This document shows, one piece after another, positions 1 through 8,990 of a stretch of 9,357 bases of DNA; the first letter of the stretch is position 1, and each line of letters opens with the position of its first letter. The notes under the pieces are model-generated. The model was not told the origin of the DNA. It made no database searches and was given only the letters and a program-made list of their open reading frames with translations. The translations under genes were made by a program, and so were the position numbers. Source of the DNA: a virus (taxonomy: Duplodnaviria > Heunggongvirae > Uroviricota > Caudoviricetes); the IMG/VR virus record IMGVR_UViG_2537562195_000004; one strand, given 5' to 3'.

Positions 1-1242
1 ATGGCGAGAAAAACACCCCCATTAACCACAGTACAGATCAAAGCAGCCAGACCAGCAGAAAAGGAATACACCCTACAGGACGGCGGAGGGCTTTTTCTCC
101 TGATCAAACCGTCCGGATCAAAACTCTGGAGATTTTCCTACTACCGACCATCGGACAAAAAAAGAATATTGCTGAGTTTTGGATCGCTTGATGATGTTTC
201 CCTGGCTGATGCCAGAAAACGCCGTAGCGAGTACAGGGCGTTAATTCGTGCCGGAACTGACCCGCAGGACCACGAGAGGCAAAAAAGAGAGACAGAGGCC
301 CGAAGACAAGGGAACACGTTCGAAAATGTGGCAACAGCATGGTACCAGGTGAAAATCAGCCAGAATCTGGCCCCCAATACGATTAAAGACATCTGGCGAT
401 CGCTGGAAAAATATGTATTCCCGTTCATCGGCAACACGCCAATAGACACCCTGACCGCTCGCAGGTTCGTTGAGGTGCTTACCCCCATCAAGGAACGTGG
501 CAACCTGGAAACGCTCAAGCGAGTTTTACAGCGTATAAATGAGGTAATGGATTACGCCGCCAATAGTGGGATGATTGATGCCAATCCGGCTATGAATGTG
601 CGTAAGGCGTTCCCCTCCCCTGTAAAAAAACATATGCCAACAATCCGCCCCGAACAGCTGCCGGAGCTTATGCAGGCTTTATCAGTATCGGCAACAGAAC
701 GGCAGACCAGATTACTGATTGAATGGCAGTTACTGACCGTAACCCGTCCCGTTGAAGCATCGTCGGCACGCTGGGAAGAAATCGACATGGAAGCGCAACG
801 CTGGACCATACCCGCCGGACGCATGAAGATGCGCCGCGACCACGTTATCCCGCTTTGTGACCAGGCTATGGCAGTGCTGGAGGCTATGAAACCAATCAGC
901 CACCACCGCGATTATGTTTTCCCGAGTCTGAAAGACCCACAGCAGCCGATGAACAGCCAGACCGCTAACGCAGCATTACGACGCATGGGATTCGCTGGCG
1001 TGCTGGTGTCTCATGGATTACGCGCCATATTCAGCACAGCAGCGAACGAAGAAGGCTTTGAGCCGGACGTAATAGAGGCCGCACTTGCCCACGTCGACAC
1101 CAACGAAGTCAGACGGGCATACAACCGGAGCAACTACATAGAAAAACGCATCGTGCTTATGCGCTGGTGGGGCGAATTTGTCGAGGCTGCGGCGACGGGC
1201 GTAACCCTCGCCAGTGGTAAAAGGGGTATCCGAGCCGTTTAG
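1..1242 (+). CDS. int: Tyrosine recombinase, P4-type integrase family (IntA/IntS-like)
   Basis: 413-aa ORF. N-terminus MARKTPPLT..IKAA.P..KEY.L.DGGGL.LLIK.SGSKLWRFSYY is the characteristic P4-type integrase N-terminal arm-binding domain. C-terminal region has HGLR and RAYNRSNY, consistent with the catalytic His/Arg and Tyr. Recognised from memory of the family. Confidence 0.93.
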   Translation: MARKTPPLTTVQIKAARPAEKEYTLQDGGGLFLLIKPSGSKLWRFSYYRPSDKKRILLSFGSLDDVSLADARKRRSEYRALIRAGTDPQDHERQKRETEARRQGNTFENVATAWYQVKISQNLAPNTIKDIWRSLEKYVFPFIGNTPIDTLTARRFVEVLTPIKERGNLETLKRVLQRINEVMDYAANSGMIDANPAMNVRKAFPSPVKKHMPTIRPEQLPELMQALSVSATERQTRLLIEWQLLTVTRPVEASSARWEEIDMEAQRWTIPAGRMKMRRDHVIPLCDQAMAVLEAMKPISHHRDYVFPSLKDPQQPMNSQTANAALRRMGFAGVLVSHGLRAIFSTAANEEGFEPDVIEAALAHVDTNEVRRAYNRSNYIEKRIVLMRWWGEFVEAAATGVTLASGKRGIRAV

Positions 1243-1738: not shown

Positions 1739-1945
1739 ATGGAAGCAATCAAAAAAGTCATCTTTCGCCAGGAAGTAAAAAAACTTATCCACATTAAGGC
1801 AGACAGCACGCTGCAAAGCATGATCAACGCCGGAGAATTCCCGCAGGGTTTTCGTGTCGGTTTGCGCCGTCGCGGATGGTATGAGGAAGACGTAATCGCA
1901 TGGATGAAAGAACGAGAACAAGAAGCGCGCGGAACGACCGCTTAA
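1739..1945 (+). CDS. alpA: AlpA-family phage regulatory protein (Vis/excisionase-like helix-turn-helix)
   Basis: 68 aa; pattern ..L..MI.AGEFP.G...G.R.RGW.E.DV..WM is typical of AlpA/Vis proteins next to P4-type integrases. GAGG RBS at 1726-1729. Confidence 0.85.
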   Translation: MEAIKKVIFRQEVKKLIHIKADSTLQSMINAGEFPQGFRVGLRRRGWYEEDVIAWMKEREQEARGTTA

Positions 1946-2327: not shown

Positions 2328-2501
2328 TTATCCTTTGGGTTCAATACCGCGTTGCTGTAATTCTTTTCGGAGTACTCGCTTGATCCAGGTGGCTAAAGAA
2401 GTGTCACCGTCTGCTTTCGCTGCCTCTTCAAGTTGTGCTCTGAATTCTTCTGGTAGCCGCATTTGGTATGGAGGCGATCGCTTTTCCAATGGTGTTGACA
2501 T
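2328..2501 (-). CDS. Ribbon-helix-helix (Arc/Mnt/MetJ-type) DNA-binding protein; not in the supplied ORF track
   Basis: Hand translation of the minus strand: MSTPLEKRSPPYQMRLPEEFRAQLEEAAKADGDTSLATWIKRVLRKELQQRGIEPKG (57 aa, stop at 2328-2330). Fits the Arc/Mnt beta-strand/helix/helix pattern (P.x.hRhP.E.....A...G.S.N..I...L). AGGG RBS; start abuts palindromic operators. Confidence 0.7.
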   Translation of the reverse strand: MSTPLEKRSPPYQMRLPEEFRAQLEEAAKADGDTSLATWIKRVLRKELQQRGIEPKG

Positions 2502-2543
2502 GGTAATTACCCTTAATTACTATAGTTACATGGTAATTACCAT
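2495..2543 (+). promoter_or_regulatory. Divergent promoter/operator region I: sigma70-like promoter overlaid by two GGTAATTACC palindromes
   Basis: -35 TTGACA (2495-2500), 17-bp spacer, -10 TACTAT (2518-2523). Perfect palindromes GGTAATTACC at 2502-2511 and 2532-2541 (second extends to ATGGTAATTACCAT, 2530-2543); centres 30 bp apart. A possible minus-strand -10 TATAGT for the RHH gene lies in the same region. Confidence 0.5.
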
Positions 2544-2568
2544 TGTACTTACCGTTATACAAAAAACA

Positions 2569-2680
2569 ACGCCCCGCAGTGGTGGCTCACATATGGGGCG
2601 TCTAACCAAACCATTAATTGAGGTAACGATTATGGCTATAAAAGAGCATAGCTTACTCTTTATACACACACAAACGCCCC
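2569..2680 (+). repeat. Leader module copy 1 (orphan): hairpin, RBS, ATG and ~16 codons homologous to the Icd-like gene leader
   Basis: Hairpin cgcccc (2570-2575) / ggggcg (2595-2600), then tctaaccaa, GAGG, ATG at 2632 encoding MAIKEHSLLFIHTQTP (compare MVAVNHIPHLVHTQTA at 3378). Similarity then ends. On the minus strand the hairpin is followed by TTGTTTTTT, so it is terminator-like for minus-strand transcription. Confidence 0.6.
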
Positions 2681-2681
2681 G

Positions 2682-2701
2682 GAAACGGAATAATCCGTTT
2701 C
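2682..2701 (-). other. Perfect 8-bp hairpin just 3' of the upstream MTN gene (putative RNA 3'-end structure)
   Basis: GAAACGGA-ataa-TCCGTTTC, 20 nt downstream of the stop of the 2721-2948 minus-strand ORF. Confidence 0.4.
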
Positions 2702-2720
2702 ATGGTTCCGTCTTGTGCAC

Positions 2721-2948
2721 TCATCCTGGCGGTCGGTTTTTGCCGGATTTAAGCCGCCGTGGGTATTTATCGACAAAATCTTCAAGGGCAAATTTTTCTG
2801 GTGGCACTAAGCGCGGCGCTGGTGGTGGTATTTTTGTTCTGGTTAGTTCTTCCTCAAGTCTGGCGCAGGCTTCTGACTGCCTTTGCCGGATGATTTCATC
2901 ATCTTGCGTTTGCGTGTCTTGTATTGGTGATAGTGTGTTGTTGGTCAT
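2721..2948 (-). CDS. Hypothetical small protein, 'MTN' paralogue B (second gene of RHH cassette 2)
   Basis: 75 aa, paralogous to 2067-2270. Preceded by conserved ACAGGG and the 44-bp element. Family unknown. Confidence 0.45.
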   Translation of the reverse strand: MTNNTLSPIQDTQTQDDEIIRQRQSEACARLEEELTRTKIPPPAPRLVPPEKFALEDFVDKYPRRLKSGKNRPPG

Positions 2949-2956
2949 GATACTGC

Positions 2957-3000
2957 CCTGTAAAGCAATGCGCCGTAGTACCTCACACCACGGCGCTGAT
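2957..3000. repeat. 44-bp conserved palindromic intergenic element, copy 2
   Basis: 43/44 identical to 2279-2322. Same position in a 57-bp spacer between an RHH gene stop and an MTN gene start. Confidence 0.8.
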
Positions 3001-3005
3001 AGTGA

Positions 3006-3185
3006 TTATTCTGATTCTTTGGCCTTGCGACGCTGGCGGCGTTTGATTTCGCCGCGCATGGCTGCGTTTATAAACTGCCCCGTGCTTTCACCTTCTTCTT
3101 TCACGTTCTCCATGCCTTCAATAATTTCATGGGCAATACGTGCAGTTACAGATTGTGATTTTGCATTCTTTGGCCCCGTTGCCAT
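3006..3185 (-). CDS. Small RHH-like DNA-binding protein (putative repressor of the Icd-like/rep operon promoter)
   Basis: Preferred start is the ATG at 3185 (MATGPKNAKSQSVTARIAHEIIEGMENVKEEGESTGQFINAAMRGEIKRRQRRKAKESE), preceded by GAGGGG at 6-nt spacing; the track start at 3224 lacks an RBS and would place operator copy O1 in coding sequence. Pattern VTARIAHEII....GES.GQFINAAM resembles Arc/Mnt. Fold assignment is by eye. Confidence 0.5.
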   Translation of the reverse strand: MATGPKNAKSQSVTARIAHEIIEGMENVKEEGESTGQFINAAMRGEIKRRQRRKAKESE

Positions 3186-3206
3186 GTTTAACCCCTCATG
3201 TTTTTG

Positions 3207-3287
3207 GTGTAAGACAATATACACGAAAAAAAAATATTTTGAAGGGTTGACGTGTAAGACACCGTTATTTTACATTGTGTCTTACAC
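3207..3287 (+). promoter_or_regulatory. Divergent promoter/operator region II: three copies of GTGTAAGACA(C) around a + strand promoter
   Basis: GTGTAAGACA at 3207-3216, GTGTAAGACAC at 3252-3262, inverted GTGTCTTACAC at 3277-3287 (the last two form an 11-bp perfect inverted repeat with 14-bp spacer). -35 TTGACG (3247-3252), 17-18 bp spacer, -10 TTACAT/TACATT (3270-3276). Same architecture as region I with different operator sequence. Confidence 0.5.
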
Positions 3288-3318
3288 CTTGTTGATGCAA
3301 GGTACAGAAAAGACGAAA

Positions 3319-3431
3319 CCCCGCAGTGCTGGAACACATACGGGGCTTCTAACCAACAACGTAAACGAGGAGCCGTTATGGTTGCCGTAAATCATATACC
3401 ACACCTTGTACACACACAAACTGCCTTTGTG
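3319..3431 (+). repeat. Leader module copy 2 (functional copy, upstream of and overlapping the Icd-like gene start)
   Basis: Hairpin ccccg (3319-3323) / cgggg (3341-3345), tctaaccaa, GAGGAG RBS, ATG at 3378. 33/39 identical to copy 1 over the hairpin core by manual alignment. On the minus strand the hairpin is followed by a U-rich stretch. Confidence 0.6.
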
Positions 3432-3578
3432 TGGCGTTTTCTGGCACTGAGTGCCGGAGAATCTCAAATCATCCACGTAACCGCCTGGACGGAACGCGAA
3501 GCGCGTAGCCGTTGCCCGTCCGGTTGTGTTGCTGTATTCGCTGCCCGTATTCGTCAGGGGGAAACCTATGCACAATAA
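3378..3578 (+). CDS. Small protein, probably Icd-like (host cell division inhibitor-like, as in P1 icd / P4 kil region)
   Basis: 66 aa; pattern F.WRF.A......II.V.A.TEREAR...P.G.V.VFAARI matches my recollection of Icd-like proteins annotated in P4-like prophages. Strong RBS. Family assignment from memory, not a search. Confidence 0.5.
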   Translation: MVAVNHIPHLVHTQTAFVWRFLALSAGESQIIHVTAWTEREARSRCPSGCVAVFAARIRQGETYAQ

Positions 3579-3798
3579 AACCACACCGGACGCAGCAGAA
3601 GAAGCAATGCAAATACTGATACGTGCGCTCGTTGATGTTACCCACATGGTGGAGATTATGGAGAGAAAATCACAGTCGGAGCACGACAAAAGAAAACTTA
3701 AAACAATAAAAATAATTGCCAAAAACTCGCTGATAAAAGTTACAGACATCCTTAATGAGGACATTAAAAGAATAAGGGAGAAAATTTGTGATGCATAA
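3568..3798 (+). CDS. Hypothetical small basic helical protein X1 (in AT-rich insert)
   Basis: ATG at 3568 with AGGGGGA RBS; overlaps the Icd-like stop by 11 nt. 76 aa, K/R-rich. Local GC about 33% against about 50-60% in flanks. No family recognised. Confidence 0.5.
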   Translation: MHNKTTPDAAEEAMQILIRALVDVTHMVEIMERKSQSEHDKRKLKTIKIIAKNSLIKVTDILNEDIKRIREKICDA

Positions 3799-4018
3799 AA
3801 TCCCTTTTGAAGTATTAATCCACTCTGAAAACGCATTAATTAAAGCACGCGAAATGAATGCGTTGTTAATTAAATTAATTGAAGTGCCGGAAGGTGGTGA
3901 GGAATCAGGTGTATTAATGTTTGCAGCCATTCAGACATTACTATCGCCTGTTATTGATGAACTGGATAAGGCAATGGCAATTCACGAAAATAATAACGCG
4001 CCCCACACCGGAGAATAA
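3791..4018 (+). CDS. Hypothetical small acidic helical protein X2 (in AT-rich insert)
   Basis: ATG at 3791 with AAGGGAG RBS; overlaps X1 stop by 8 nt (translational coupling). 75 aa, E/D-rich. No family recognised. Confidence 0.5.
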   Translation: MHKIPFEVLIHSENALIKAREMNALLIKLIEVPEGGEESGVLMFAAIQTLLSPVIDELDKAMAIHENNNAPHTGE

Positions 4019-4023
4019 AAATA

Positions 4024-4323
4024 ATGAAACTTAAATATTCTGGCTTAACTGCCAGTGGCAACACTCACCCTAAATTTACGCGCGGTGATATTTACCGCGA
4101 CCAGTACGGCGGCACGGTAATGATTAAGGGCGTGGCGGGACGGTGCGTAACTTACCGCCGTGAAGGTTACGAATATGATTGCGTGATGCCTGTTTATCAG
4201 TTCCGGCGTGATTTTTCTCTGGTACAGACCGCGCCGCATAACGTGCCCACCAGCAACGCCAGGGCACGGGCAAACATCCAGAAGCTGAAAACCATGATTA
4301 ACGGATTCAGGGGTAAAAAATGA
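4024..4323 (+). CDS. Hypothetical protein X3
   Basis: 99 aa; GGAG upstream. Stop TGA overlaps the rep ATG (ATGA at 4320-4323). No family recognised. Confidence 0.5.
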   Translation: MKLKYSGLTASGNTHPKFTRGDIYRDQYGGTVMIKGVAGRCVTYRREGYEYDCVMPVYQFRRDFSLVQTAPHNVPTSNARARANIQKLKTMINGFRGKK

Positions 4324-5729
4324 AACTGGCACCGAACGTAAAACTATTACCGAAAGACAAATACACCGATGCGATTATTTTTGCGGGTATTGATGCTCAC
4401 TCATTCGCAGAGCATTACATCATTGCACAGGCAAAAAAAGCAGGAGATCCAGTCCCTCCCGTTTATCTGGGGCGTTATCAGTTAAGCGAACTGGATAACC
4501 TCCAGATTGTTGATGATGGGCGATACAGGGCGACGGTGATACGCGCCGGAAATATTGAAGAGCCGCAGCTGTTAACCATCGCCACGAAACTGGCGATCGC
4601 CGGAGTCCAGGAGGCGCGGCTACTTTCTGAAAATTTCGAATTGCTGGAGGAATGGAGCGACCAGCTTCCACGGCTTAGGGAGGCATGGGAACGCGGGGAA
4701 AGCCTGGTCATGAAAAAAATCCCCCAGCGAAAAACCACGCTACCGATGAGCGTTGGATCTACCGGATACGACACACAGCTTGATTACGTGGTAAAGGGGA
4801 TTATTCCGGCATCGTCGCTTTGCAGCATATACGGGGCGAGCGGTTCCTATAAATCATTCCTTGCCGGATCGTGGGCGTGTCACGTTTCCACGGGCCGCCA
4901 GTGGGGAGGCCGCAGGGTGGCGCATGGCGCTGTTCTCTATGTGGTTGGTGAAGGCGGTATCGGCGTTCCGCGTCGTGTAAAAGCCTGGGAGGTTGTACAC
5001 GGGGAGCAGGTGAAAAATCTGTATCTGGTAAACCGTCCGGTCTTTCCGGCTGTCCCGCTTGATGTTGATGAACTGGTTATCGCTGCCCGTCAGGTGGAGC
5101 GGGAAACGGGTAAACCTGTACGCATGATTATTCTGGATACGCTGGCGCGGTGCTTTGGTGGCAATGATGAAAATGATTCCCGTGATATGGGGGCGTTTAT
5201 CCGTGGTTGTGACGAACTGAAACGGCGCACAGGGGCCACGGTGCTGGTGGTTCACCATTCCGGCAAGGATGAGACGAAAGGCGCGCGCGGTTCCAGTGCA
5301 TTTCGTGCTTCGCTGGATGCTGAATACCGGATACGCAGAGAGGACGCAGGCAGCGAAGCGCTGGTTATCTCATGCACCAAAATGAAGGACGCGGAGGAAC
5401 TCAAAGAAGCCGCATATGACTTACGCGTGGTGGAGCTTTTTACCGACGCTGACGGGGAGTTAATTACGTCGCTGGTGGTGGTGGATAAGCCGCGCCCTCC
5501 CGTTGAACTGGAGCGCATCGAGGAGGCAGGCAACAAGACGGAAAACCATACCGCGCTATGGGGGTGCATACGTTCACGCACACAGCACGGCGACAAGTGC
5601 ACGATCCCGCTGTTACGTGACGATATGAAAAAGCTGGGGTATGACACAAAACACCTTAAACGATGGTTAGCCAAACTGGAAAAAGACGACGTGATCTACA
5701 TTGACGGTGATGATGTAGGACCACTGTAA
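4320..5729 (+). CDS. RepA-like replicative ATPase/helicase (RecA-fold, AAA_25-type) with a C-terminal putative origin-binding domain
   Basis: 469 aa. Walker A GASGSYKS, Walker B RMIILD, and VLVVHHSGKD motif typical of AAA_25/RepA-like phage and plasmid helicases. Lies immediately upstream of the iteron array. Confidence 0.8.
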   Translation: MKLAPNVKLLPKDKYTDAIIFAGIDAHSFAEHYIIAQAKKAGDPVPPVYLGRYQLSELDNLQIVDDGRYRATVIRAGNIEEPQLLTIATKLAIAGVQEARLLSENFELLEEWSDQLPRLREAWERGESLVMKKIPQRKTTLPMSVGSTGYDTQLDYVVKGIIPASSLCSIYGASGSYKSFLAGSWACHVSTGRQWGGRRVAHGAVLYVVGEGGIGVPRRVKAWEVVHGEQVKNLYLVNRPVFPAVPLDVDELVIAARQVERETGKPVRMIILDTLARCFGGNDENDSRDMGAFIRGCDELKRRTGATVLVVHHSGKDETKGARGSSAFRASLDAEYRIRREDAGSEALVISCTKMKDAEELKEAAYDLRVVELFTDADGELITSLVVVDKPRPPVELERIEEAGNKTENHTALWGCIRSRTQHGDKCTIPLLRDDMKKLGYDTKHLKRWLAKLEKDDVIYIDGDDVGPL

Positions 5730-5730
5730 A

Positions 5731-5928
5731 AAGTGGGCATTAAAAGTGGGAAAGGTGGGAGATTTAACGTAATTTTAACAAAATTACCCACTTTCCCACG
5801 TGTATATATCCCAAAAAGTGGGCACTAAAAAAATACCTATGAAACAAGATGATATAAATCCCAAATTTCCCACGTTGGACGAAGTGGGAAAACGTAAAAA
5901 GTGGGCGAAAAAAGTGGGTAGAGGTGGG
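5731..5928. repeat. Iteron array, putative origin of replication
   Basis: Eight direct copies of AAGTGGG/AGGTGGG (starting 5731, 5744, 5753, 5816, 5882, 5899, 5912, 5922) plus inverted copies (CCCACTTT 5787-5794, CCCAC 5795-5799 and 5869-5873), interspersed with AT-rich segments (5761-5786, 5823-5865). Begins 2 nt after the rep stop. Confidence 0.65.
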
Positions 5929-5931
5929 CAA

Positions 5932-6189
5932 ATGACTCAAAAACACAGAGACAGAACAGAGCCAAAATATAAAGCGTTAGACATGACAGAGCACGCCTTA
6001 AAGGTGGCAATCAGAACGATAGACCGCCACGCGGGGGAAGGATACGCGAAAGAACATCCCGACCTGATAAGCGCATTCATGACCACAGCAGCGGCAAACT
6101 TTGCCACGCTGACAGAACGTGAGATTGCCGAAGCGGAACAGGTAACAACCATCAACGTAAAAACCGGAGAGTCAGGCGATGATACATGA
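5932..6189 (+). CDS. Hypothetical protein downstream of the origin
   Basis: Preferred start ATG 5932 with GAGGTGGG RBS (the last iteron). The longer track ORF from 5800 translates the iterons (KKWAKKVGRGG) and is probably not real. Overlaps the PerC-like gene start by 11 nt. Confidence 0.45.
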   Translation: MTQKHRDRTEPKYKALDMTEHALKVAIRTIDRHAGEGYAKEHPDLISAFMTTAAANFATLTEREIAEAEQVTTINVKTGESGDDT

Positions 6190-6451
6190 CCGCATAGCGG
6201 AGGAACTCGAGGCGAAAGGATTTTACCGGAGGGCGGCGGCGCGATGGGGTGAAGTCATGCAGCTGGTGGAGACAGACAAGGAACGGCATCAGGTTACGAT
6301 GCGACGGCTGGAATGTTCCAGGAAAGCACAGAGGCAACCGGAGCCGCCGGATAACTTCGGAGACCTGAGAAAGGCAGTAGATCGCACTTATGCTGAAATG
6401 GGTATAGATGGTGTAAGCGATGAAATATGGTGTAATTACCAGGACAGCTAA
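6179..6451 (+). CDS. PerC-family transcriptional regulator (PerC/Pch-like)
   Basis: 90 aa; N-terminal DRIAEELEAKGFYRRAAARWGEVM matches the PerC-family signature (AE.LE.KG.WRRAA.RW) as I recall it. Followed by an intrinsic terminator. Confidence 0.6.
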   Translation: MIHDRIAEELEAKGFYRRAAARWGEVMQLVETDKERHQVTMRRLECSRKAQRQPEPPDNFGDLRKAVDRTYAEMGIDGVSDEIWCNYQDS

Positions 6452-6909: not shown

Positions 6910-7104
6910 ATGCCAGAGAACAACACCAGAAAGCCGGATAAAAGTGCCACGGTACACATAGACGCCGGAACTATGGAGAAGATCGAACGCTATCAGCAGT
7001 TCATCAAAGATAATCACCCGGGTATGCCGGTACCCACGAAAGGACAAATCACACGCAGCGCGGTTGAATACTGGTACCAGGCAACGTTAGGAGCCTGGCT
7101 ATGA
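6910..7104 (+). CDS. Small protein, possible RHH-like DNA-binding protein, translationally coupled to the protease-capsid gene
   Basis: ATG at 6910 preceded by GGAGG (6897-6901). Stop TGA overlaps the next ATG (ATGA at 7101-7104). Pattern TVHIDAGTMEKIERYQQFI...TKGQITRSAVEYWYQ is compatible with strand-helix-helix. Weak call. Confidence 0.4.
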   Translation: MPENNTRKPDKSATVHIDAGTMEKIERYQQFIKDNHPGMPVPTKGQITRSAVEYWYQATLGAWL

Positions 7105-8990
7105 AAACATGGTTTTCCATTAAGGCTATGGCAGATGTTGTCTATGTGCGTATTTATGACGAGATCGGCGGGTACGGTGTAAAAGCATCGACACTTACTG
7201 ACGAGATCAACGCGTGCGGTAATGCGTCTGAAATCCATCTTCGCATCCATTCACCTGGTGGCGACATCTTTGAAGGGCTGGCTATCTATAACGCCCTGAA
7301 AAATCATCCGGCAAAGAAAATTGTACACATTGAAGGCATGGCGGCTTCTATGGCCTCGTTTATTGCCATGTGTGGCGATCACATCGTTATGCCTGAAAAC
7401 GCGATGATGATGATACATGCCCCCCGTGGTGTTACTGCCGGAGTGTCGGGCGACGTTCGCCGCTTTGCTGACCTGATGGACAAGCTGGGCGACACGATGG
7501 CGGAAACCTACGCCGGAAGAACGGGCAGGAGCAAACAGGAGATCACCTCAATGATGGAGGCGGAAACCTGGATGGATGGCAATGAGTGTAAGGCTAACGG
7601 CTTCGCAGATGAGGTTATACCCGCGATTACAGCAATGGCCCGAATTGAATCAAAACGAATCGGAGATTTTTCAAATATGCCGGAAAAAATTAAAAGCATG
7701 ATCAGCCAGAAAACTGGCAGTGGCGAACAGGAACGACTTAACGGAATCCGTGAATTGTTTGGCACCTTCAACGGAAGATATAACGACCTGGCTATAAGTT
7801 GTCTTGCGGATTCAGAATGTAGCGTTGAGAATGCACGCGAACGCCTTTTACTCGCTATGGGTAAAGAATCAACGCCAACAAACAAAACCACCCCCGCAAA
7901 TCTTTACTACGCGTACACGGATAACGGCAATATAACCGGCGATGCCATGCGTCAGGGGCTTAATGCGCGTCTTGGTCACGAACGGGCCGAACGCGGTAAT
8001 CCTTACGCCATGATGAGCCTTTTCGATATGGCACAGGCATCATTAACCCATCGTGGTATAAGCACGGGCAGCTACAGCACACGCTCGCAGATAGTAAACG
8101 CGGCATTCACCCACAGCAGCAGCGATTTTACCGATATCCTTGCTGGTGGCGCTGAAAAATCAGTGCTTGCAGGCTGGGAGCACAGCGGCGAAACATTCCG
8201 CCAGTGGACGAAAAAAGGTTCCCTTTCAAACTTCCGGGAAGCCCGCCGCGTTGGTATGAATGGCTTCTCAACGTTAAACAAAGTGCCGGAAGGGGCAGAA
8301 TATAAATACATTACCACCAGCGATCGCGGTGAACCCATCGCGCTGGCTACTTACGGGAATATTTTCAGCATTACCCGCCAGGCGATAATCAATGATGACC
8401 TTGATCAGTTATCAACGGTGCCAATGGCTATGGGCCGTGCAGCATCAAGAACGGTGGGAAATCTGGTTAATCTGGTGCTTACAGGCAACGTAAAACTTTC
8501 TGACGGAATAGCGCTGTTTGACAAAAAACACAGCAACCTGATTGAAGCAGGACTGACAACACCGGGACTTAGTGCAGCACGTCACCTGATGCGCACACAG
8601 AAGGACAAAAATGGCGAAGTGCTGAATATTGCGCCTAAATTCCTTTTAGTTCCGGCAGCACTGGAAGATCGCGCGTTGCAGATGATTAACTCAACCGCAC
8701 CTTTCGGGGCTGATAAAAACAGCGGGATCTTTAACCCGTATCACAAGCTACTTGATATCATCGTCGATCCCCGCCTTGATGATATCAGCGAAAAACAATG
8801 GTACATGCTTTCCGCACAGGGAACAGACACAATCGAGGTGGCTTATCTTGATGGCAATGACGAGCCTTACCTTGAACAGCAGGAAGGTTTTATCGTTGAC
8901 GGCGTGGCCTGGAAAGTCCGTATTGATGCAGGTGTGGCAGCTCTGGATTATCGCGGTATGGTCAAATCAGGCGGGACAGATTCACTATGA
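7101..8990 (+). CDS. Prohead protease (ClpP-like, S14 family) fused to a large C-terminal capsid-like domain
   Basis: 629 aa. N-terminal ~190 aa has ClpP-type motifs: GMAASMAS (catalytic Ser context, compare ClpP GQAASMG) and MMIHAPRG (compare MIHQP). The ~440-aa C-terminal part is of capsid-protein size and is followed by a strong terminator; the capsid assignment is an inference (confidence about 0.55), the protease assignment is stronger. Confidence 0.8.
   Translation: MKTWFSIKAMADVVYVRIYDEIGGYGVKASTLTDEINACGNASEIHLRIHSPGGDIFEGLAIYNALKNHPAKKIVHIEGMAASMASFIAMCGDHIVMPENAMMMIHAPRGVTAGVSGDVRRFADLMDKLGDTMAETYAGRTGRSKQEITSMMEAETWMDGNECKANGFADEVIPAITAMARIESKRIGDFSNMPEKIKSMISQKTGSGEQERLNGIRELFGTFNGRYNDLAISCLADSECSVENARERLLLAMGKESTPTNKTTPANLYYAYTDNGNITGDAMRQGLNARLGHERAERGNPYAMMSLFDMAQASLTHRGISTGSYSTRSQIVNAAFTHSSSDFTDILAGGAEKSVLAGWEHSGETFRQWTKKGSLSNFREARRVGMNGFSTLNKVPEGAEYKYITTSDRGEPIALATYGNIFSITRQAIINDDLDQLSTVPMAMGRAASRTVGNLVNLVLTGNVKLSDGIALFDKKHSNLIEAGLTTPGLSAARHLMRTQKDKNGEVLNIAPKFLLVPAALEDRALQMINSTAPFGADKNSGIFNPYHKLLDIIVDPRLDDISEKQWYMLSAQGTDTIEVAYLDGNDEPYLEQQEGFIVDGVAWKVRIDAGVAALDYRGMVKSGGTDSL

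Follow-up and report, generated by a model that had tools for sequence, protein, structure and literature searches.

The early operon of a small phage satellite, contained in a 9,357-nucleotide (nt) stretch of DNA (IMG/VR record IMGVR_UViG_2537562195_000004; hereafter the window), carries a low-GC block of two small genes, X1 and X2, between an Icd-like gene and X3, a gene of the DUF4222 family that immediately precedes the replicase gene rep. Comparison with related loci showed that recombination at short conserved gene junctions exchanges this block as an allelic cassette, and that X2, near-universal and in all cases acidic and AT-rich, is linked in translation to the basic DUF4222 protein. 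The reading that we favour, tentatively, is that X1 and X2 are local alleles of two fast-diverging families of hairpin proteins of about 75 amino acids (aa) in a recombining early-operon slot, with X2 proposed as a partner of the X3 product, a protein resembling the regulator RgdR.

Of 5426 complete E. coli genomes, 1428 matched parts of the 1.1-kb region, for the most part owing to their Icd-like and DUF4222 genes, and no more than 33 matched at least 80% of its length. Eight related E. coli islands were read in detail and compared all against all together with the window (nine loci). A common frame was present in every one: an Icd-like gene, one to four small coupled genes, a DUF4222 gene and a replicase gene, the last encoding a RepA helicase, a P4-alpha-like primase or a DUF927 protein, three types unrelated to one another. 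The slot occupied by X1 and X2 has a fixed place in the early operon (Icd-like gene, small genes, DUF4222/RgdR gene, replicase) of enterobacterial satellites of the phage-inducible chromosomal island (PICI) type.

Three independent scans of IMG/VR, made through X2, X1 and DUF4222, extended the comparison to about 200 loci. All 49 loci recovered through X2 had the order Icd-like gene, small gene (S70, S63, S61 or X1), X2, DUF4222, replicase. Among the 74 loci recovered through X1, an X2-family gene was located downstream in all but two, once the more diverged X2 type had been recognised; one of the two exceptions was a contig ending before the X2 position. A scan of further genome contigs added one locus only. 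An empty slot between the Icd-like and DUF4222 genes was found in none of the approximately 200 related loci, and the segment is therefore not the compositionally foreign insert proposed in the preliminary description of the window. The part of that proposal that stands is the deviant GC content and the existence of an exchangeable unit, with breaks at 3596 and 3993. The presence/absence comparison of related islands that it had suggested showed a slot that is always filled, with X2 near-universal and X1 optional.

The limits of the cassette were defined by comparison with L002, a sister island that shares the backbone of the window: blastn homology stops at 3596 and resumes at 3993, and both borders fall within conserved gene ends, the 5' end of X1 and the 3' end of X2. 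Comparison with other islands gave breakpoints at 3543, 3775-3788 and 4396. No direct repeats flanking the cassette and no iterons inside it were found.

The alleles of the slot are not tied to the replicase. The window type of X2 was found with RepA in 3 combinations, with the primase in 11 and with DUF927 in 1, and the 77-aa type of X2 in 24, 23 and 2 combinations, respectively; X2 alleles thus assort independently of replicase type. Such a pattern resembles that of lambdoid phages, in which genes are exchanged as a mosaic at conserved gene boundaries: divergent alleles lie between short conserved junctions and modules reassort independently. Unlike in the lambdoid phages, the units exchanged by the satellites are single 230-nt genes or gene pairs within one translationally coupled operon.

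Pairwise ratios of nonsynonymous to synonymous divergence (dN/dS, Nei-Gojobori) were 0.21 for the 75-aa type of X2, 0.26 for the 77-aa type and 0.37 for the window type of X1, compared with 0.33 for DUF4222, 0.19 for the Icd-like gene and 0.09 for RepA. Synonymous divergence among X2 alleles is deep (mean dS 0.6). These values indicate that X1 and X2 are real protein genes under purifying selection.

The base composition of the block was measured along the whole window. The preliminary description had reported a sharp drop at about 3580-3960, to 33-35% GC. The drop is there, and the block is the global minimum of the window, with 36-38% GC in the block and 50-54% in the flanking genes; the reported figure is right for the core and slightly low for the stretch, which has 37.5% GC against 48.8% for the whole window. 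The lowest 200-nt window has 32.0% GC (3701-3900), the lowest 381-nt window of all 9357 nt starts at 3655 (34.6% GC), and 2.3% of all 381-nt windows are as low in GC as 3580-3960. X1 and X2 are the genes of lowest GC content in the window, with GC at third codon positions (GC3) of 0.403 and 0.329; the neighbouring X3 and rep have GC contents of 0.503 and 0.536.

The same measurement in related loci showed that the deviation of X2 is shared by its family. Mean GC was 0.395 for X2, 0.448 for X1, 0.544 for the Icd-like gene, 0.488 for DUF4222 and 0.53-0.54 for the replicases. The X2 family (n=59 loci) ranged from 0.32 to 0.51, with a mean GC3 of 0.355. Since X2 is AT-rich in every island, its low GC characterises the family and does not point to recent foreign origin. 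In the X1 family, GC runs from 0.377, the value of the window allele, to 0.52, and other alleles have about 0.51. Hence the compositional deviation is not specific to this copy in the case of X2, and is partly so in the case of X1. Homologous islands do carry a low-GC segment at this position; the families it is related to are uncharacterised and are not those of known replication proteins.

The genes of the operon form an unbroken chain from the Icd-like gene to rep, as the preliminary description had stated and as can be read directly in the sequence: the stops and starts of the Icd-like gene, X1, X2, X3 and rep either overlap or are spaced by 5 nt. The Icd-like stop (3578) and the X1 start (3568) overlap by 11 nt, and the X1 stop (3798) and the X2 ATG (3791) by 8 nt; 5 nt separate the X2 stop (4018) from the X3 ATG (4024), and X3 and rep overlap in an ATGA (4320-4323). 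The RefSeq annotation of the identical locus of E. coli strain 4 contains exactly these open reading frames (ORFs). The ribosome-binding site of X3, GGAG, lies in the last codons of X2 (..HTGE). The C-terminal TGE is invariant in the X2-family alignment; the conservation of this end is explained in part by the X3 ribosome-binding site embedded there.

Promoter-like sites in this region were no more numerous than in shuffled sequences, and none of those that could serve X1 and X2 alone rose above chance. The site upstream of the Icd-like gene (Table 1) is a possible, weakly indicated operon promoter. Between 1600 and 6600 of the window, 14 terminator-like hairpins were found, against 5.9 +/- 2.5 expected from shuffled sequence; a weak one lies within X2 (3847-3863).

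The products of X1 and X2 are small helical proteins of 76 and 75 aa, in agreement with the preliminary description. Both were predicted by AlphaFold2 to fold as two-helix hairpins, with a mean predicted local distance difference test score (pLDDT) of 82 in each case; the helices span residues 7-34 and 38-75 in X1, and 6-30 and 36-69 in X2.

X2 is the most constant of the slot genes. It was present in eight of the nine compared loci, always directly before DUF4222. When loci were ascertained through DUF4222, an X2-family ORF was found upstream of the DUF4222 start in 78 of 80, represented by 45 distinct X2 sequences and separated by a spacer of 5 nt in 77 loci and 6 nt in one; in the remaining two loci X2 was deleted. 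Across 101 distinct combinations, the isoelectric point (pI) was 4.2-5.7 for X2 and 9.9-10.7 for the DUF4222 protein. The conserved acid-base neighbours are thus X2 and X3/DUF4222, not X1 and X2.

The X2 family is also narrowly distributed. An exhaustive search with the X2 profile against 1.84 billion cluster representatives matched 31 clusters only, all of short proteins except two long ones; these two matches, which cover a short stretch only, were taken as chance, leaving no informative domain fusions. The named sources were E. coli/Shigella, E. albertii, Yersinia enterocolitica, Enterobacter/Citrobacter and Salmonella.

X1 behaves differently. The family was found in five of the nine compared loci, directly after the Icd-like gene, and X1 of the window is 32-36% identical over its full length to GC-richer alleles; it belongs to an optional family, in which it is a diverged allele, rich in lysine and low in GC. 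The opposite charge of the two proteins, X1 basic and X2 acidic, is correct for this allele (pI 8.8 and 4.9), but it is not conserved: the other X1-family members have a pI of 4.5-6.0, and the basic charge is allele-specific because these alleles are acidic. In all 13 combinations with the window type of X1, the X2 allele was one of 75 aa, and the low-GC pair therefore travels together. Of the 27 combinations with the 75-aa X2, 11 contained no X1 at all.

Sister islands carry X1 as part of a 150-aa protein, in which it is joined to an acidic hairpin other than X2. The longer X1-family gene of these islands contains a poly-G tract of 6 to 11 G (for example at L002:1982-2007, L003:2179-2205, L047:4722, L116:3196 and L176:2517). 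Among loci that were not de-duplicated, G8 was counted 49 times, G7 27 times, G9 26 times and G10 5 times. Tracts of G7 and G10 give the fused protein of 150-155 aa (an X1-like hairpin followed by an acidic 73-aa hairpin), and tracts of G8 and G9 split it into two ORFs or give an 86-aa variant. This variation could be due to slipped-strand phase variation, to programmed frameshifting or to homopolymer sequencing error. The X1 allele of the window has no poly-G tract.

The preliminary description had recognised no family for X1, X2 or X3. X3 is a DUF4222 protein (82.1 bits against a cut-off of 27 for PF13973), and X1 and X2 belong to families of PHROGs (Table 1). X3 is 78% identical to, and of the same length (99 aa) as, the corresponding protein of CP-933C of O157:H7, which has the six residues listed for ECs1581 by Flockhart et al. 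(PMC3378721). An RGD motif is present at residues 20-22 (T-R-G-D at residues 19-22). X3 is accordingly identified, on sequence grounds, as an orthologue of RgdR (ECs1581), a prophage-encoded protein that regulates motility and type III secretion in enterohaemorrhagic E. coli (EHEC) O157:H7; the two share the length of 99 aa, a matching pI, the RGD motif and the same neighbours. RgdR has been described as a protein of small size and basic charge that binds DNA non-specifically, activates LEE1, in the enterocyte-effacement locus (LEE), and represses motility (PMC3378721). The likeness to RgdR concerns X3, and not X1 or X2; CP-933C has its X2-family member, Z1841/ECs1580, immediately upstream of rgdR. 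The window carries in addition a PerC-family gene, and two families of known LEE regulators are thus found on one 9.4-kb satellite. DUF4222 proteins also resemble P4 ORF151, weakly but repeatedly, over residues 8-52 of the latter (E 0.02-0.2, database of six proteins), a similarity that Pfam does not confirm.

A function for X1 and X2 was sought by homology and by fold. Neither protein matched Pfam, NCBIfam or PADLOC, and with PADLOC no family was obtained up to E=1 for any product of the chain (Icd-like, X1, X2, X3 or rep). The matches in PHROGs, 5146 and 2512 for X1 and 2196 and 5796 for X2, are to families of unknown function only. A sequence search of PDB with the X1 and X2 profiles and the X3 sequence gave nothing at E<1, and Foldseek against PDB and BFVD returned only unspecific coiled or hairpin matches with E of at least 0.15, nothing below 0.1. 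With hhalign, no relationship was detected between X1 and X2 or between either of them and the slot families C73 and S63. Phage genomes gave no protein match for X1 and no DNA match for the region; the only protein match of X2 was in the Klebsiella satellite vB_KppS-Ant. In the literature searched, Z1841/ECs1580 and the X1 and X2 families appear as 'hypothetical protein' only. Homology and fold therefore assign a function to neither X1 nor X2.

The partnership that we propose for X2 is drawn from its position and charge. X2 may be a small protein-binding partner of the RgdR-like DNA-binding protein, acting as a chaperone, an antagonist or a DNA-mimic-like buffer; we hold this to be possible rather than probable. 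When a helper phage switches the operon on, X2 would be made in fixed proportion to the RgdR-like protein and would bind or buffer it, and X1 would be an accessory hairpin that modifies or extends the X2-RgdR module, possibly through a four-helix bundle with X2. A more ambitious version, which we consider unlikely, is that the X2-family hairpin and DUF4222/RgdR form a conserved two-protein module, in which the acidic hairpin binds and gates the basic regulator, and the diversity of X2 and the optional X1 tune the rewiring of host virulence and motility genes, or of satellite replication, upon helper induction.

Several observations weigh against such a partnership. Adjacency and charge complementarity are weak predictors of binding. 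X2 is dispensable, at least in a resident island, given its loss in L206 (2410-3300) and L207, where nearly the whole gene is gone and about 78 nt are left between the long X1 gene and DUF4222; in L005, an unrelated small gene takes its place. Conversely, in vB_KppS-Ant the X2 homologue lies directly before the primase gene, without DUF4222. Near-identical DUF4222 alleles (at least 97% identity) were found with X2 alleles less than 50% identical in 19% of pairs, and any contact between the two proteins would therefore have to use the few conserved positions of X2, L50/L51 and PVIxEL. Finally, RgdR alone, supplied from a plasmid, complements its mutant (PMC3378721).

The alternative closest in weight, although we also rate it as unlikely, is that X1 and/or X2 are helper- or host-manipulating factors comparable to P4 epsilon, which would act by binding a repressor or some other protein of a phage, or a protein of the host, the diversity of alleles reflecting different targets. 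The left operon of P4 consists of ORF88, eta/cI, epsilon, ORF151, cnr and alpha, and shares with the window the order AlpA-like gene, Icd-like homologue, set of small genes, replicase. The C-terminal part of the P4 eta/cI ORF matches PHROG 1743 (7.5e-21), as does the Icd-like gene of the window, which places X1 and X2 where P4 has its antirepressor and other small genes. The many divergent alleles, the cassette exchange, the uncoupling from replicase type and the retention of X2 in vB_KppS-Ant, where DUF4222 is missing, would all suit a protein of this kind. The small genes themselves differ, however: epsilon belongs to PF25738 (Derepression family) and Cnr to DUF5375, and X1, X2 and X3 to PHROG 5146, PHROG 2196 and DUF4222. 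No match to PF25738 was found with Pfam up to E=1, and hhalign gave probabilities against epsilon of 0.8% for X1 and 0.3% for X2. A resemblance of nine N-terminal residues of X1 (MHNKTTPDA) to those of epsilon (MRNKKAPQT) was considered and rejected as not significant. The likeness to epsilon put forward in the preliminary description thus holds for position and not for detectable homology. Overall, dN/dS is well under 1, the fold searches matched no known antirepressor, and Gram-negative PICIs are described as helper-induced through alpA, not as helper-inducing (PMC6092414, PMC11773190).

Other functions appear less probable still. X1 and X2 share a translationally coupled chain with the replicase and could be accessories of satellite replication, for example a helicase or primase loader, or copy-number regulators of the kind of P4 Cnr, a small regulator that controls copy number and whose gene in P4 is just upstream of the primase gene. 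This is improbable: the same alleles of X2 and X1 are found ahead of three mutually unrelated types of replicase, X1 is often absent, no similarity to Cnr/DUF5375 was detected (hhalign probability 0.06%), and a cloned pri/rep-ori segment of EcCICFT073 supported plasmid maintenance (PMC6092414). Slightly less credible again is that X2 protects or de-silences the satellite, as an anti-restriction or anti-defence protein or as an antagonist of nucleoid proteins. X2 is consistently acidic, small, encoded in the early operon and diverse in sequence, and its neighbours RgdR and PerC act on loci controlled by H-NS and Ler (PMC3378721, PMC10877973). As a DNA mimic, however, a hairpin of 75 aa and a net charge of about -7 makes a weak candidate, no match in PADLOC, Pfam, NCBIfam or among folds points to such a role, and the H-NS consensus motif showed no enrichment in the window. 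Last in the order comes the toxin-antitoxin or abortive-infection pair, with X1 basic and X2 acidic, which is very unlikely. It would account for the overlap, in this allele, of two small genes with oppositely charged products and for the association of window-type X1 with 75-aa X2. It is contradicted by the frequent occurrence of that X2 without X1, by the acidic X1 alleles, by the fusion of X1 to another acidic hairpin in sister islands, and by the location of both genes, lacking a promoter of their own above chance, inside a five-gene chain. With no toxin, antitoxin or defence profile matched and nothing from Foldseek below E=0.1, the toxin-antitoxin or anti-phage module suggested earlier is disfavoured.

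Table 1. Features of the window and of the X1-X2 slot, with the evidence for each.
Feature	Position	Strand	Evidence or remark
Integrase	1-1242		
AlpA/HTH (helix-turn-helix) regulator	1739-1945		
Arc/YlcI-like genes	duplicated block between AlpA/HTH regulator and Icd-like gene	-	
Promoter-like site upstream of Icd-like gene	3247..3276	+	TTGACG-18-TACATT, 9/12 matches
Icd-like gene, 66 aa, first of coupled chain	3378..3578	+	NCBIfam NF033153 6e-18; PHROG 1743 1.8e-22
X1, 76-aa two-helix hairpin, pI 8.8, GC 0.377	3568..3798	+	PHROG 5146; N-terminal half of PHROG 2512
Low-GC allelic cassette, 36.1% GC	3597..3992	.	X1/X2 part non-homologous in DNA to sister island L002
X2, 75-aa acidic two-helix hairpin, pI 4.9, GC 0.382	3791..4018	+	PHROGs 2196/5796
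GGAG ribosome-binding site of X3, in last X2 codons	4010..4013	+	sequence; alignment
X3, DUF4222 protein, 99 aa, pI 10.2	4024..4323	+	Pfam PF13973 2.1e-23
RepA-type helicase (AAA_25), satellite replicase	4320..5729	+	Pfam PF13481 2e-44; PHROG 2850; annotated 'helicase RepA family protein'
Iterons AAAAAGTGGGC and inverted copies, AT-rich stretch 3' of rep	5726..5918	.	repeat families D3, D8, D13, I1
PerC-family (Pch-like) regulator gene	6179-6451		
ClpP-like prohead protease/major capsid fusion, single 629-aa gene	7101-8990		

A chromosomal island with 100% identity to the window is present in E. coli strain 4, next to tRNA-Pro, with yejM on one side and yejO on the other. Its gene content and its site of integration, tRNA-Pro, mark the window as a small E. 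coli phage satellite of the PICI type. It has an integrase, alpA, a replicase with an adjacent iteron origin, a size of about 10 kb and a specific attachment site, and lacks a full set of virion genes, which are the features of Gram-negative PICIs, and its layout matches the EcCICFT073/CP-933C type (PMC6092414, PMC10111431). With EcCICFT073 and CP-933C (O-island 51) it shares the integrase at a tRNA site, the AlpA-type regulator, the replicase followed by iterons, the PerC-family gene, the capsid/protease gene and a length of about 9.4 kb. The chain of CP-933C is likewise composed of an Icd-like gene, small genes, the X2-family gene Z1841/ECs1580, RgdR (ECs1581) and the replicase Z1842. The window differs from both in its replicase, a RepA-type helicase instead of a DUF927 protein or primase, and in its slot alleles, the low-GC X1 and the 75-aa X2.

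Directly downstream of rep, three direct copies of the iteron AAAAAGTGGGC, about 84 nt apart, and inverted copies lie in a stretch of 37% GC, which is probably the satellite origin by comparison with the origin layout of Gram-negative PICIs (PMC6092414). Because the iterons sit downstream of rep, the AT-rich X1/X2 block is not the origin.

Upstream of the chain, a tandem duplication was observed (2260-2609 and 2938-3356, spaced by about 680-750 nt, 80% identity). The duplicated module consists of a minus-strand Arc/YlcI-like small gene and a GC-rich hairpin (CCCCGCAGTG..ATA(C/T)GGGG, at 2572-2600 and 3317-3345), the second copy of which is just upstream of the Icd-like start; a strong hairpin with a 12-bp stem on the minus strand (2996-2970) is also part of it. 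Elsewhere, for example in L008, the Icd-like ORF has about 100 aa and reads through the GC-rich hairpin. The arrangement of hairpin and Icd-like gene recalls c4/icd of P1 and CI/eta of P4; Rfam, run on the window and with relaxed settings on 2450-3450, detected no immunity RNA of the C4 or isrK type and no other RNA family.

The sequences of X1 and X2 were already present in RefSeq, as hypothetical proteins, and in PHROGs, the type of element was known, and the family of X3 had been characterised. The allelic slot, the family-wide AT-richness of X2 and its near-constant pairing with rgdR-like genes were not found stated in the searchable literature. The false lead of a foreign toxin-antitoxin or defence cassette is removed by these results. 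One testable lead is provided in its place, the partnership of X2 and RgdR; there is otherwise nothing unusual about X1 and X2 as hypothetical early genes of a satellite family already known. Satellite proteins of the RgdR family alter type III secretion and motility in EHEC, and X2 is their almost constant, translationally linked neighbour.

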